64,000 nucleotides of DNA, taken from contig OZ007025.1 in the NCBI GenBank assembly GCA_963931545.1, positions 1,272,599 to 1,336,598 of the forward strand, written 5' to 3'. This DNA is from an uncultured Bacilli bacterium. GTDB taxonomy: Bacteria; Bacillota_I; Bacilli_A; RF39; UBA660. How positions within the stretch are numbered: the first letter of the stretch is position 1; each line of letters opens with the position of its first letter. This document shows positions 37,501-46,500 of this stretch, one piece after another. Made by a program: the position numbers.

Positions 37501-40500
37501 GAAAAATTATCCACAATAATAATATTTCTTTTATTATTTAAAAGTTCGATTGCTGTGTGGCTACCAATATAGCCAGCACCTCCTGTTATTAATATATCCA
37601 TAAACCTTCTCCTTACTTTGTTTATTAAATTTTATCATTTTTATTTATAATAGGTAAAGATATATTTAAAAAAATTACGCTGTAACGTAATTTTTTGCAT
37701 ATTTTTCTATTTTTTTACGGTTTAGCTTTTTAGAAAATTAACAGTTTCTTCAATCACCATTTTATTTGAATCATCATAGAAACAGTGGGTAGCTTTTTCA
37801 ATTAACTTAACATCAATGTTTTTTGATTTAAGTTCTAAAGACTGTTTATATGGGACAACTAAGTCTAAGGTACCATGAAATATTTTTACTTTTCCTTTAA
37901 AATTTTGAATTACTTTTTTTGCATCGTATTTTTCGGCATCGTTAAATGTATTCATGTTAAATTTAACATTAGTATTACCAAAGGTTGCATAGCCTTTTTC
38001 TCTTATTTGTTTTAAGGCTTCTTCGCCTAAAAAGTCTTTACAAAAATGGTTTTGGGGATGGATAACATTATTTTTAGCATCTATTAATGGACTCCATAAA
38101 GCTAATTTATCTACATCTATATATTCGGTAAGTAAAGTAGCTAATCCACCACCATAGGAAGTTCCAACGATACTGATTTTTTTATGGGGATATTTTTTTA
38201 ACAAGGTTAAAGCTTCATTTATGGCAATTTCCATAGTTAAATCTTCGGTATGACCATCAGATTGTCCATGACCTAGATAGTCAAATCTTAATGAATCTAC
38301 GTTACTTTGTAATAATTTTTCAGATAGAGTATCAAAATTTCCTTTTTCATGCATATCTGAACCAAATCCATGAAGTAGTAAAGCTAAGTGAGCATTATTT
38401 TCATGGGTATATATATAAGATATATAATTACCATTTATTTTTATTTTACTTTTTACAATCATTTTAAATCTTCCTTTTTAATTGGGTTTAACAAGAAATG
38501 TATTATAGTTACTATTAACATAAAGATACCTGATACGGTAAATGTTGTTACGATATTTGAATTAAATAGGTTACTAATAAAATTAATGATGTATGGTGAC
38601 AAGAAAGCACCTAACTGACCAGCACCATTAAATATAGCTATGGCTAAAGCACTTTTCGCAGCAGTTACCATATTAGCTGAGAAGGTTATTCCAGCAGGGT
38701 TTCTGGTGGCAAAGGCAAAGCCTAATAAAGCAGAGCCTATAAAGATTAAAATTATTTGTTTAGTGGCGATTAAAAAGAAGCCAATAGTAGCTATGGCACA
38801 AGCAAAGGTTAAAGTATTTGTTTTAAATATTTTAACTACTTTATTTAAGATAAAGCCGGCAAATAGACCTATTAGAGTATATATAGCTGTAACTAGGCCA
38901 CTGATATCTGATTTATAGCCTAGGTTTTCTAGTAATAAGGCAATACTGGTATTAAAAACATTGATACTTATAAAGAATAGTATAGAAATTACGCCGAGAA
39001 GATAAATTCTTTTGGGTAATTTTTCTTTGGTTTTGCTTTCACTTTCGAGTTTATCATTTGGTAAAAAAGCTATATTTATTACAATGACTATAAGGGCTAG
39101 AAAGAAACATAGATATGAATATGGCCAGTTTATTTTGGCTAGTAAGCCACTTAGGTATGAAAATAAGGTTCCACCAATACTGACAAATATTGATTGATAA
39201 CCCATGACTTTCATTTTTTCTTCGCCATCAAAATAATAAGATATCATGGATGAACTGATAACATTTATTAGGCCAATACCTAAACCAAGTAATATACTTG
39301 ATACATATAACTGCCATATATATCTATGGAATATATAAGTAAAAGCACCACCTAATGTAATTAATATTAAACCTATAATGCCAATATTTTTCATACTAAT
39401 TTTTTTAGATAAGGGGTTACATAAAAACATTGTTACTACGGAAAATAATGGTATTAAGGTAACTATTATTTGAATATTTTCTAATTCTTCGTTTGGAAAA
39501 CTATTATAGATGTTTGCTACTATGGGGGTTAGGGCCATATATGATAATAAGAACATGCTTAAGGTCATAATGGCAATTAATTTTTTATTCATGTTTTCAA
39601 AATAAAAAGCTTTAATAAGCCTTTTATTTTTCCCTTCTTGTATATTTTACTGATTTTTCATAACTTTTTAAAGCTATGAATGCTAATAAAGTAGAAACGA
39701 TTACTCCTAATGTAGCAAATATCAATGTGTTTTCCATTGTTTCTAAGGTTCTTAAATCAATATTTAATCCATTTATTAATACTCCAAAAGCGAATAAGAA
39801 TCCTAAGATGGCAGCTACTAACACATATGGTAGGTTTCTAAGGAATGCTTTACCAATTGATAGTTTTCTATCTAATACTTTAGCTGTTCCTTTTAGTACT
39901 ATTACACCATTTAATAATGTTGGGATAGCGCAGCTCATGACACCACCTATTATATTAGGAATTTCGTTTTCAGGATCAACTCCGACGACAGTAGTTAATA
40001 CAAAACCGAGAATAAATCCGACAACTACTCCAGGAAGTAATTGTTTTATAATATCTTTACCTTTCATAAGTCCTCCTAAAGTGATTTAAATACAGGTTTT
40101 CCCGTATAAATCATTGGTTTTTCAAGGCCACTTAATACACGAATCGCGCCTGCAGATAGGGCTTCTAGTTCAAATTCTCCTGGCATAGATACGATTTTGG
40201 CCATGGTTTTACAATATGATTTTATTTTATCTCTAACGTATTTGTCGTTAGCTATTCCACCAGTTAATATGATGGCTGAACAATTTCCTTTTAATGATGC
40301 ATACATTGCACCTATTTGTTTAATTATTTGATATATCATGGCATCTAAAATTATTTTGGCTTTTTGATTGCATTTATCAATCATTTTATGGACTTTTCTG
40401 ATATCATTGGTTCCAAGCCAAGCTGTAAGGCCTCCGTTTTTACCGATAAAACCTTTTATTTGTTCTAATGAATATTTATCATTCATACACATTTTTAAGA

Positions 40501-43500: not shown

Positions 43501-46500
43501 TAGCGACAGCATATCCTTGATAACACCAGAATAATGGATCTGATGATTCAAATTTACATACTTTAGATACAGCTCCTGTTGGAACACCCATTGGTCTAAA
43601 GATTTGGACTGGTTGGTGCCATGGTTGTTTTCCAAAGAATGACCAACTTATGATAAGTGGGACTGGTTCTTCCATGGCAGTTTTTGGCATATAAATATCA
43701 GCATAGATAGTTACGCCATCACGCATTTTAACTGGTTGGTCTTGCAAGCATAGTATTTTTTCTTCGTCATCGACAAAATATTCAGTGGTGTTTACTGGTA
43801 CTTCTATGCAGTAGTTAGCCATTTCTTCACGAGGTAATTTCATATATTCCTCTTTTGGAATTGGCTGAGTTAGTTTTGAGAAGATTACATCGCAAGATGT
43901 TCCATTTGGATAAGTTACTTTGACAATTTTTTCTTCTCTTTTTGGCAATTCTTTTGGTAATGCCATATTGTTTTCTTCGTTCATATAACCCCTCTTTCTT
44001 ATTCTACCATTTTAGCGATTGCATCAGCAGCTTGGCCAATTGTTTCAGCGTGCATTAATTCTGTGTATTTGATATAGCAATCATATTCTTCTTCAAATTC
44101 AGAAATAATACCAGCAAGTTCAATACTTTTAAGGTTTAAGTCTGTTTTTATGTTAGTATTTTCTGAAAGTGTGGATGGATCGACACGCATTGCTTTGGCA
44201 GTTTTTTCAATAAGTTTTTTTAGTATTTCATCACGCATAGTCTTTCTCCTTTCTTTAGAAGTGTGATATACTTAAGTAGGTGTTGTGTATGATTAAAGGA
44301 ATCGGCTGTGATATTTTATCTATTTCTAGATTTAAAAATGTTCTTGAGGCGACTCCTGCTTTACTTAAGCGGTGTTTTAGTGAACGGGAAATAGATGAAT
44401 ATCATAAAAGAAATGATATTGCCTATTTGGCTTCACGATTTGCAGCTAAGGAAGCTATTGTTAAGTCTTTTACTAAGTATAATCACGATTTAAATTCTAT
44501 TGAGATACTAAATGATGATGATGGTAAACCATATGTGGTTATCCATAGTAAGATTAAGCCTGAGATATTTGTTTCAATTTCTTATGAAACAGAATATGTG
44601 ATGGCTTACGCGGTATTATCTAGTATCTTATAATAATTATAACTTATTATGGGATTATCTTCAATCTATTTATGCATAAGAGTGCAAAAAAAAATAAGCT
44701 ACCTGTCAAATAGCCTATTTTTTTGTGGATAAATTTAACTATATTTATACTGACAGATATAACTATAGCTATTATCAAGATCCCACATGTACGTACATTA
44801 CTTAATAGCTTGATAACGATAGAAAAATGAACAAAATAGTCATATTATAACCATAACTATTTGTAATTTGCCTCGTAAATTACTAAAAATTTACTGAAAA
44901 ATAATTTTTAATAAGTATACACAGATTAGAAATTATTAGTGCTTTTGATGACTATCCTATTAAGTACTTTCAATATATCATGATTTTTGGGATAAAGCAA
45001 GTAGTTTTTAATATTTTTTTTATTTATGTGTAAAGTTTACTTGTTGAGATTAAAGTTTTGTTTCTTTTAACATACATTTTGATGATTTTGTTAGTTGAAA
45101 GGAACATAGAAACACAATATAATTTAATTATAAAAAGAATGTTTACATATTTTTGTGCAAGCATTCTCTTATTTTTAAGGTATTTTGCAGTATTTCGATT
45201 TTTTTGCAAACAATTTCAATGTTTTTTTATTTTCTATTTTTTCTAAAATACCTTTATTATCTTATTTTATAAAGCTTTACGCATTTTTGCCACAGCACTG
45301 TTTGTACTTCTTACCAGAACCACATGAACTTTGTACTCCCATATTATCAATATTATCGATATTTATAATATTATTGATATTTCAAGGTTTATCAGACTAG
45401 GTAACTTCTATATTATCAATATTATTTATATTATTTTTATTATAAATATCATTCTACTGTGGACAAATTGTGGACACTGTCCACATCCGTTCACTGCCAT
45501 CATTATATTCTTAATATAAGAAATAATCCAATGTGCAAATAATTTATTTATACATTTGACATTCATATTATAATATTTTTAAATATAATAGTCAATGAAC
45601 GGACAAAATTTTATAAATCAATTTTATATTTAATTACTTTATTTATTGTTTCTGATTTTATTGCGTCATCAAATATATCTATTGCATATTTTCTTGAATC
45701 TTCTGTACTCGATATATAAAAGTTTTCTGTTGTTTCAATATTCTTATGACCCAATATATCAGCAACATCCCTAATCTCTACTCCTTTCTTTAATATTTTA
45801 GTTGCATAACTTCCTCTTAAATCGTAAAATCTACATTTTTCAATACCCAACTCATTATGAATTATTTTAAATGGTGTCCTTGTTATGTCTGTTCCAGTAT
45901 ATGTTCCATCTTCTCTTGTAAAAATTAAATCTAAAGGATTTTCATATTTTTCATTATCATTATTTTTTACGATTCTTATTTCTTTTATTTTTCCAGCATT
46001 ATTTTTTATATATTCACTATGATAATAAATATATTTATCTCCATAAATTTTCTTTAAATAGCTTTGCTTATTTTTATAATTTTGCAATGCACATAATAGA
46101 GTATTGCATATATGGACTTTTCTTGTTCCTGTTTTTGTTTTTGTACTTCCTAAAAACCATCTACCTTTTTCATCTTTAGGTTTATCATATACGTTGTGCG
46201 AAATTTTTATAATTCCTTTATCCAAATCTACATCATCCCAAGTTAATGCACATACTTCACCAGTTCTCATACCTGTATAACAAGAAGTTAAAAAAACACA
46301 GGTAAAAGTATCGTTATCAATAAATCTGTTTAGTATTTTATCTATTTCTTCTTGTGTATATAAGTGTTTTACATCTTCTCTTACTGTATCAAATCTAGGT
46401 AATCTTAAATCTCTCGCAGGATTATACTTTATAAATCCATACAAGTTACACGCATCTCTAAATGATCCTTTAAGCACTTTTAAAATATTTTTAAAATAAG

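Follow-up and report, generated by a model that had tools for sequence, protein, structure and literature searches.

We analyzed an operon of an uncultured Bacilli bacterium (GenBank assembly GCA_963931545.1) located in a 64,000-nt stretch of contig OZ007025.1 (positions 1,272,599 to 1,336,598 of the forward strand), hereafter called the window, whose own numbering is used for all coordinates below unless another locus is named. The operon joins genes for an acyl carrier protein (ACP), a CocE/NonD-family hydrolase, a Pta-like acyltransferase and a butyrate-kinase-family kinase (Buk), and it lies divergently to acpS, the gene for holo-ACP synthase. We propose that these five genes may constitute a self-contained catabolic module that would yield ATP by way of a protein-bound thioester, replacing acyl-coenzyme A (acyl-CoA). 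On the sequence evidence presented here, this reading appears to us evenly poised between right and wrong.

The gene set in the window and its conservation

ORF calling placed seven open reading frames (ORFs) on the minus strand at positions 37722-44238 and an eighth, divergent ORF on the plus strand. All eight stand at the coordinates given in an earlier note on this DNA, and profile searches matched the families named there. The minus-strand series starts with the gene for the 79-aa ACP (43999-44238; PF00550 PP-binding, 25.9 bits against a cut-off of 20.8). It continues, all on the same strand, with genes for the 598-aa CocE/NonD hydrolase (42188-43984; TIGR00976, 188.7 bits against 66.3; Peptidase_S15 and PepX_C domains), the Pta-like PTA_PTB protein (41166-42188; PF01515, 296 bits), which measures 340 aa, or 335 aa if the start codon lies at 42173, and the 367-aa Buk (40076-41179; TIGR02707, 418 bits against 289). 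On the plus strand, acpS (44289-44633; PF01648 and TIGR00516) encodes 114 aa from its ATG, with an alternative GTG start at 44280. Junctions between the minus-strand genes measure, in order from the ACP gene, 14, -1, -14, 8, 31 and -4 nt. With such short gaps and overlaps and with acpS 50 nt upstream, the earlier picture of a tightly packed gene set next to a divergent acpS was borne out.

A scan of one genome per species yielded 262 confirmed hydrolase homologues, of which the best 80 were kept, and partner genes were counted by tblastn in the flanks examined, using several queries per family. Beside the hydrolase gene, ACP genes were found in 64 of the 80 loci, AcpS genes in 52, Pta-like genes in 61 and Buk genes in 60. 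All four partners were present in 45 of the 80 loci and in 20 of the 27 whose flanks reach at least 8 kb on each side. Twenty-two arrangements were listed, about ten of which are complete with all five genes. The commonest order, AcpS< ACP> CocE> Pta> Buk>, represents the Bacilli type (22 loci); others include AcpS> Pta> Buk> ACP> CocE>, CocE> ACP> AcpS> Pta> Buk> and ACP> CocE> AcpS> Pta> Buk>. The hosts belong to at least five phyla: Bacillota (Lachnospiraceae, Oscillospiraceae, Erysipelotrichaceae), Actinomycetota (Slackia equolifaciens, Parolsenella), Thermodesulfobacteriota (Desulfobacterales and others), Chloroflexota (Dehalococcoidia, Chloroflexia) and Pseudomonadota, the last with a metagenome-assembled genome (MAG). 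Conservation of the gene order, a check that the earlier note had set beforehand, was strongly positive by these counts. Because the five-gene set has been kept in about ten complete orders and in five or more phyla, we regard AcpS as a member of the module; its earlier description as a divergent neighbor was right in orientation and too modest in role.

Cultured hosts comprise Slackia equolifaciens DSM 24851, Anaerobium acetethylicum GluBS11, Clostridium caldaquaticum and Anaerobacterium chartisolvens. The module also occurs in Mediterraneibacter glycyrrhizinilyticus, where no Buk gene was detected in the flank examined. In three loci (L054, L061 and L084), two paralogous CocE/NonD genes flank one AcpS-Pta-Buk-ACP set (4904-6706 and 10001-11776 in L084), an arrangement suggesting that several substrates feed one carrier/kinase cassette.

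Transferase, kinase and carrier protein

The transferase gene had previously been labeled ptb, which proved wrong. Its product scored 267.4 bits with the Pta model TIGR00651 (cut-off 311.2) and 284.4 bits with NF007233 (cut-off 310), missing both cut-offs, and 67.3 bits with the Ptb model TIGR02706, which demands 410.5. Because the Pta scores lie far above the Ptb scores (67-70 bits), with both below cut-off, we assign the protein as a divergent Pta-like enzyme and not as Ptb. With no true Ptb, and with ACP, AcpS and CocE as partners, an ordinary butyrate-fermentation operon was rejected; the presence of these neighbors in 45 of 80 genomes lends support to the earlier view that the layout is not a standard one for this fermentation.

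For residue comparisons, we aligned the window protein with the M. thermophila Pta (PDB 1qzt), whose numbering is used here. The window protein retains S309 and R310, shows Glu in place of D316 and Tyr in place of R133, and lacks R87. Among 60 module Ptas, none carries Arg at either position 87 or position 133, the latter being occupied by Y, F, L, I or M. S309 is found in 59 of them and R310 in all 60, and D316 is changed to Glu in 59. In Pta, the second site for CoA is made up of R87 and R133; their mutation mainly raises Km, and the P. gingivalis Pta structure has acetyl-CoA bound at this site (PMC6461089). Loss of both arginines in the module enzymes suggests, without proving, a changed thiol substrate.

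A large-database search with the window Pta returned close relatives only. Among 1.84 billion cluster representatives (50%-identity clusters), nearly all of the approximately 28 nearest full-length Pta clusters lacked both arginines, and more distant representatives showed the canonical xRK...R...D pattern. The Arg-less Ptas thus form a clade distinct from canonical Ptas in this search. The kinase exceeded both butyrate-kinase cut-offs (TIGR02707, 418.2 bits against 289.1; NF002834, 443.7 against 222). In our proposal, the Pta-like enzyme would be an acyl-ACP:phosphate acyltransferase and Buk would catalyze the ATP-forming step.

The carrier protein is likewise unusual. Ser38, within the sequence LKSIEL, aligns with Ser36 of E. 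coli AcpP and is invariant in an alignment of about 50 loci. It forms part of a K37-S38 attachment motif that replaces the canonical Asp-Ser and is followed by Ile or Leu; over the same loci, every module ACP has a basic residue before the attachment serine; more than 90% have Lys there, the remainder Arg. Scores with AcpP models stayed low (TIGR00517, 27.7 bits against 70.45; best subfamily model, 39.5 against 66). AcpS reached 61.0 bits with TIGR00516, a marginal result against the cut-off of 59.8, 74.2 bits with TIGR00556 (cut-off 45.35) and 59.1 bits with PF01648. A housekeeping acpS/acpP pair was rejected, the ACP lying far below the AcpP equivalog cut-offs and carrying the Lys-Ser motif.

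We looked up the genomic context of five further Arg-less Pta representatives and found a PP-binding gene with the same Lys-Ser motif adjacent in all five. Two contexts (P0390 and P0395) contain ACP, CocE, AcpS, Pta and kinase genes. The others comprise E1-alpha, E1-beta, E2 and E3 genes of a 2-oxoacid dehydrogenase with ACP, Pta and an Ack-type kinase (P0380); a radical-SAM gene with ACP, Pta, AcpS and kinase (P0382); and thiolase and DUF35 genes with ACP and Pta (P0416). As a control, we inspected the surroundings of a canonical, Arg-containing Pta (P0402), in which ACP and kinase genes were both missing. Since they are paired across unrelated operons, the Lys-Ser ACP and the Arg-less Pta look like a unit. 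Both 2-oxoacid dehydrogenase and the thiolase plus DUF35 pair are thioester-forming enzymes, and these contexts suggest that a cassette leading from acyl-ACP to ATP exists more generally, without dependence on the CocE/NonD hydrolase.

The cassettes of Lys-Ser ACP and Arg-less Pta without CocE, usually with an Ack-type kinase, lie in four loci (L088, 7747-10291; L089; L092, 7720-11091; L095, 3973-7020). In L088 and L089 the cassette trails a 2-oxoacid dehydrogenase E1-E2-E3 operon, in L092 it trails a radical-SAM/SPASM gene and has its own AcpS, and in L095 it trails a thiolase and DUF35 pair, with no kinase gene in the flank.

An alternative explanation is that the neighbors have no functional link and were brought together by chance or operon drift, comprising a CoA-dependent Pta and Buk, an ACP and AcpS of lipid synthesis and a plain esterase or peptidase. 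Each protein does come from a common family, and public annotation of the genes is generic. We nevertheless consider this very improbable: about ten complete arrangements in at least five phyla keep the five genes together, the CoA-binding arginines are gone in all 60 Ptas, the ACP is no AcpP equivalog and bears a Lys-Ser motif specific to its family, and an Arg-less Pta is again paired with a Lys-Ser ACP in operons that are otherwise unrelated.

Polyphenol-catabolic context and the proposed route

Outside Bacilli, the module is located in polyphenol-catabolic clusters. Genes near it encode flavone reductase (FLR) homologues in 21 loci (PDB 7d38, E = 1.7e-38), fumarate-reductase-like flavoproteins in 19, GltD-like Fe-S partners in 13, NuoF-like Fe-S partners in 11 and C-glycoside deglycosidases (CGDB, AP_endonuc_2, GFO_IDH_MocA) in 12. 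OYE plus Pyr_redox enzymes, which from their Pfam domains we take to be Fcr-like, occur near the module in eight loci, and SnoaL-like proteins are found as well. In three unrelated lineages the module adjoins genes of the phloroglucinol pathway, with SDR, cyclase, BKACE and 3HCDH genes in Oscillospiraceae (L039 and L081) and in a Dehalococcoidia bacterium from the Black Sea (L075), and SDR, cyclase and BKACE genes in the Pseudomonadota MAG (L077), where no 3HCDH gene was identified at the locus. This pathway employs an SDR phloroglucinol reductase, a cyclase-family cyclohydrolase, a 3HCDH-type dehydrogenase and a BKACE-type lyase (PMC10470551). The Dehalococcoidia locus reads in order FLR-like, OYE-type, SnoaL, AcpS, Pta, Buk, ACP, CocE, acyl-CoA ligase and phloroglucinol genes. 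Flavonoids are broken down by flavone reductase, a ring-opening reductase and phloretin hydrolase (Phy), which cleaves the dihydrochalcone, before phloroglucinol catabolism sets in. Of these steps, the cleavage is the only one for which the genes annotated in these clusters offered no obvious candidate besides the module, no search for Phy homologues having been made. A stand-alone operon is present in Slackia (L060), where a PucR regulator gene precedes ACP-CocE-AcpS-Pta-Buk-MFS.

In Clostridia and Desulfobacterota, a recurrent trio of genes stands between the hydrolase and ACP genes, encoding a fumarate-reductase-like flavoprotein (FAD_binding_2) together with GltD-like Fe-S/NAD(P) and NuoF-like proteins (for example, L081 11775-16612, L038 12608-17575 and L084 15879-19544). 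This trio may function as a reductase that draws on NADH or ferredoxin and acts on an intermediate of flavonoid breakdown.

This position between CocE and ACP, seen for fumarate-reductase-like flavoproteins with GltD- or NuoF-like partners in several Clostridia loci, would also fit a different scheme in which the ACP is a tether. Buk and Pta would load an acid onto it, redox partners (FAD_binding_2 plus Fe-S, or OYE-type) would modify the bound acyl group and the CocE/NonD enzyme would release it as a thioesterase. Redox genes accompany only 11-21 of 84 loci, however, and none occur in the operons of the window, its Bacilli relatives and Slackia, where loading followed by release would amount to a futile ATP-consuming cycle. 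We rate the tether scheme as improbable.

The hydrolase itself (PF02129, 112.8 bits; PF08530, 117.9 bits) belongs to a large, unusually conserved family with 57-63% identity across phyla. Its nearest structure is 3ib3 (E = 2e-87 and 35% identity by sequence; TM 0.72-0.78 by fold). The predicted structure matches the CocE/NonD fold, as in 3ib3 and CocE, and adds no functional detail; the WdYg1 structure is merely a distant fold match. A nucleophile elbow is formed by G207-N208-S209-G-V211, in which G207, N208 and S209 are found in 79 of 79 homologues and V211 in 78, and S209 aligns with the elbow serine of 3ib3. We infer that the enzyme would form an acyl-enzyme and pass its acyl group to the holo-ACP.

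Several further residues stand out in the alignment. C79, C154, C199, C228, H306 and H308 show little or no variation among the 79 close homologues, and C154, C228, H306 and H308 are retained in members only 47-53% identical. 3ib3 differs at the four Cys positions and at 306, H308 being apparently common to both. These residues could provide a metal site or extra catalytic residues.

In the ATP-yielding route that we propose, AcpS would place phosphopantetheine on Ser38 of the Lys-Ser ACP. Ser209 of the CocE/NonD enzyme would attack an activated acyl compound, free its leaving group and form an acyl-enzyme, which would hand the acyl group to the holo-ACP thiol in preference to water. The Pta-like enzyme, deprived of the arginines that hold the nucleotide portion of CoA, would then phosphorolyze acyl-S-ACP to an acyl phosphate in a PlsX-like reaction, and Buk would use this acyl phosphate to convert ADP to ATP, releasing the free acid. 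The MFS transporter and small membrane protein encoded further along the window operon would carry substrate and products. By analogy with the gene clusters described above, the most likely substrate class would be an acyl-phloroglucinol, for example, a dihydrochalcone of the phloretin type arising from flavonoid breakdown; the substrate could instead be a different energy-rich acyl compound, for example, an aryl ester or lactone or a depside. In its beta-triketone tautomer, an acyl-phloroglucinol could be cleaved by a thiol with energetics comparable to those of thiolysis, and the module would replace phloretin hydrolase while conserving the energy of C-C cleavage. Serine alpha/beta hydrolases that cut C-C bonds exist, such as those of the BphD type and the Ayg1/WdYg1 type.

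Taken further, the Lys-Ser ACP, AcpS, Arg-less Pta and Ack/Buk-type kinase might make up a cassette for CoA-independent substrate-level phosphorylation that stands behind varied acyl-generating enzymes, with the CocE version gaining one ATP from acyl-phloroglucinol C-C cleavage in place of Phy. We advance this fuller scheme tentatively and, going by the sequence comparisons, think it somewhat more apt to fail than to hold. The chance that a general CoA-independent route of substrate-level phosphorylation exists nonetheless appears substantial.

The chemistry could also run in the reverse, ATP-consuming direction, with Buk activating a free acid, Pta loading it onto holo-ACP, much as exogenous fatty acids are handled by FakAB plus PlsX, and the CocE/NonD enzyme acylating an acceptor such as a lipid, sugar or polyphenol through an ester or amide bond. 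Reversibility is a known property of Ack- and Buk-type kinases and of Pta-type transferases, and relatives of the CocE/NonD enzyme such as alpha-amino acid ester hydrolases, with which it shares a common fold, perform acyl transfer. A small-genome Bacilli host (contigs up to ~1.3 Mb) might need acid scavenging, and loss of the CoA-binding arginines and the Lys-Ser ACP fit either direction equally well. Gene context speaks otherwise. Elsewhere the module sits inside catabolic operons (C-glycoside cleavage, flavone reductase and phloroglucinol pathway), related cassettes trail thioester-generating enzymes such as 2-oxoacid dehydrogenase, where ATP formation would be natural, and the stand-alone operons contain no acceptor-making or biosynthetic genes. 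We therefore view biosynthetic acylation as unlikely and favor the ATP-yielding direction because the stand-alone operons of the window and Slackia, equipped with only a transporter, make sense in no other way.

Several points weigh against the proposed ATP-yielding route. We know of no earlier case in which a CocE/NonD enzyme transfers an acyl group to a carrier protein, and ordinary alkyl esters hold too little energy for ATP formation. The catalytic apparatus is uncertain since H329, present in 79 of 79 close homologues, is Glu in one distant module member and the Asp of the CocE triad (S117/D259/H287) apparently corresponds to His306, as read from a manual alignment. Mutation of R87 or R133 in canonical Pta only moderately affects activity. 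No partner gene was found in the flanks of nine of the 80 hydrolase loci, including four of the 27 with long flanks. No flavonoid genes or informative neighbors were found within the 64-kb window, and the substrate class therefore rests on homology (57-63% identity) and on context elsewhere.

Known counterparts, accessory genes and surroundings

Parts of the module resemble well-known systems. As in Pta-AckA and Ptb-Buk, a PTA_PTB transferase with catalytic Ser-Arg adjoins an acetate/butyrate-kinase-family kinase proposed to convert acyl phosphate and ADP to ATP. In contrast to these pairs, the module transferase falls below the cut-offs for both Pta and Ptb, lacks R87 and R133 (60 of 60) and travels with a dedicated ACP and AcpS, and the proposed thiol carrier is a protein instead of CoA. 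The interconversions of acyl-ACP with acyl phosphate and of acyl phosphate with acid and ATP would parallel those of PlsX and FakAB, PlsX being a known acyl-ACP:phosphate acyltransferase. However, the module enzymes match PF01515 and butyrate-kinase models, with no match to the PlsX or fatty-acid-kinase families, and they are located in catabolic polyphenol clusters with a proposed ATP-forming direction.

A functional counterpart may be Phy of Eubacterium ramulus and Flavonifractor plautii, which acts last in the FLR-CHI-Fcr-Phy series of flavonoid breakdown. The module is placed between flavone/flavanone reductases and phloroglucinol genes, and the proposed net reaction, from dihydrochalcone to phloroglucinol and phenylpropionate, would be the same. 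Whereas Phy plainly hydrolyzes its substrate, the module would retain the acyl group in thioester form for ATP synthesis, and its CocE/NonD hydrolase presumably has a different fold. This hydrolase shares the two-domain fold and elbow serine of cocaine esterase, alpha-amino acid ester hydrolase and Staphylococcus aureus SACOL2612 (3ib3/3iii), but its clade differs from them in four Cys residues, H306, a 75-residue N-terminal extension, an apparent His in place of the triad Asp and its association with ACP, AcpS, Pta and kinase. In overall logic, import, an acyl or carbamoyl phosphate, one ATP and export encoded by a single operon with a transporter, the module recalls arginine or agmatine deiminase operons with carbamate kinase and an antiporter. 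Its enzymes are entirely different from theirs, and its intermediate would be bound to a carrier protein.

In the literature, we found no published description of a combination of CocE with Pta/Buk and ACP, and our searches gave nothing on SACOL2612. A 2024 Catenibacillus genome paper and a 2026 review on gut polyphenol enzymes name only Phy for phloretin cleavage, and the paper on FLR does not mention the module. Accordingly, the parts are known (Pta/Buk phosphorylation, PlsX-type chemistry, carriers and CocE/NonD enzymes), whereas their combination, including the Lys-Ser ACP family, the Arg-less Pta clade and the polyphenol link, was not found described.

If the proposal is correct, fermentative ATP synthesis would have been rewired to a thioester on a protein, and a Pta lineage would have converged on the PlsX reaction. 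Anaerobes of guts, sediments and the deep sea would gain energy at a ring-fission step that is now drawn as a hydrolysis. This would have consequences for polyphenol-dependent growth yields, for the question of which gut taxa make phloroglucinol and phenylpropionates and for carbon turnover in anoxic soils, and even a gut bacterium with a genome of ~1.3 Mb could live partly off polyphenol fragments. The enzymes would also offer compact parts for engineering acyl-ACPs or for obtaining ATP from esters and acyl-aromatics. For annotation, the Lys-Ser ACP and a Pta without R87 and R133 could serve as markers, and the cultured hosts make the module directly testable.

Downstream of Buk, the window operon continues on the minus strand with genes for a hydrophobic 147-aa membrane protein of no known family (39624-40067), a 377-aa MFS transporter (38459-39592; PF07690 MFS_1, 132.8 bits) and a 246-aa alpha/beta hydrolase (37722-38462; Abhydrolase_1 and Hydrolase_4). 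All three are present as first described, yet they emerge as lineage-specific accessories outside the conserved core. The membrane protein gave no Pfam or NCBIfam match even at E = 10; its 140 homologues, none with a Pfam domain, define an orphan family restricted to Bacilli, with the gene lying 3' of Buk in 31 loci, all of the Bacilli group. The alpha/beta hydrolase gene was found in seven loci, belonging to the closest relatives only. The window-type MFS gene is likewise present in the closest relatives; elsewhere, for example, in Slackia and Lachnospiraceae, the module often has an MFS gene next to it, either a distant homologue (25-28% identity) or one of a different type. The transporter would import the substrate, export the product or both.

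The start codons of acpS and the ACP gene are separated by a mere 50 nt (44239-44288), a gap that is identical in the gene calls of three further loci (L085-L087). This divergent intergenic region carries the ribosome-binding site of the ACP gene, aaaggagaaaga. A simple promoter scan found no strong promoter within it, and the promoters of acpS and the ACP gene must overlap in the gap or lie inside adjoining coding sequences. No terminator-like site was found on the coding strand within the operon, and an Rfam scan of the operon returned no riboswitch or other RNA. A terminator-like hairpin with a 12-bp stem and a U run is located 3' of the last operon gene (37669-37696, minus strand; fold energy -11 kcal/mol, z = -3.4).

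Loci nearly identical to that of the window were found in MAGs of uncultured gut Bacilli or Mycoplasmatota-like bacteria. A 91%-identical homologue sits on a circular 1.26-Mb genome, and the identical 147-aa membrane protein is encoded on 148 contigs, the longest of 1.36 Mb. Spore-coat genes lie near the locus. G+C content amounts to 34-37% in the CocE/NonD and Pta genes (40001-44000) and to 22-29% in most of the window, and among Bacilli lineages the hydrolase is ~85% identical, compared with only 35-40% for AcpS. These contrasts suggest that the hydrolase is strongly constrained or that the module was transferred in the past.

A mobile or variable segment (45611-48161) was observed past the acpS 3' end, on the upstream side of the operon. 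It contains genes for a tyrosine integrase (45611-46888), an HTH_17 excisionase-like protein (46881-47117) and a PemK/MazF toxin (47379-47750), followed by a pemK RNA motif (48081-48161; Rfam RF02913, 47.4 bits). Sister contigs carry other cargo at the position of the integrase segment, for example, Fic, AAA_15 and SocA_Panacea genes. Between acpS and the integrase gene lies a non-coding stretch in which a 21-codon ORF (45277-45342, minus strand) encodes MGVQSSCGSGKKYKQCCGKNA, a lone SEC-C-type zinc-binding motif that may be what is left of a gene end at an integration site. Elsewhere in the window, 13 tRNA genes are clustered on the minus strand at 27300-28636, and a lone tRNA-Ala gene is located at 8315-8391.

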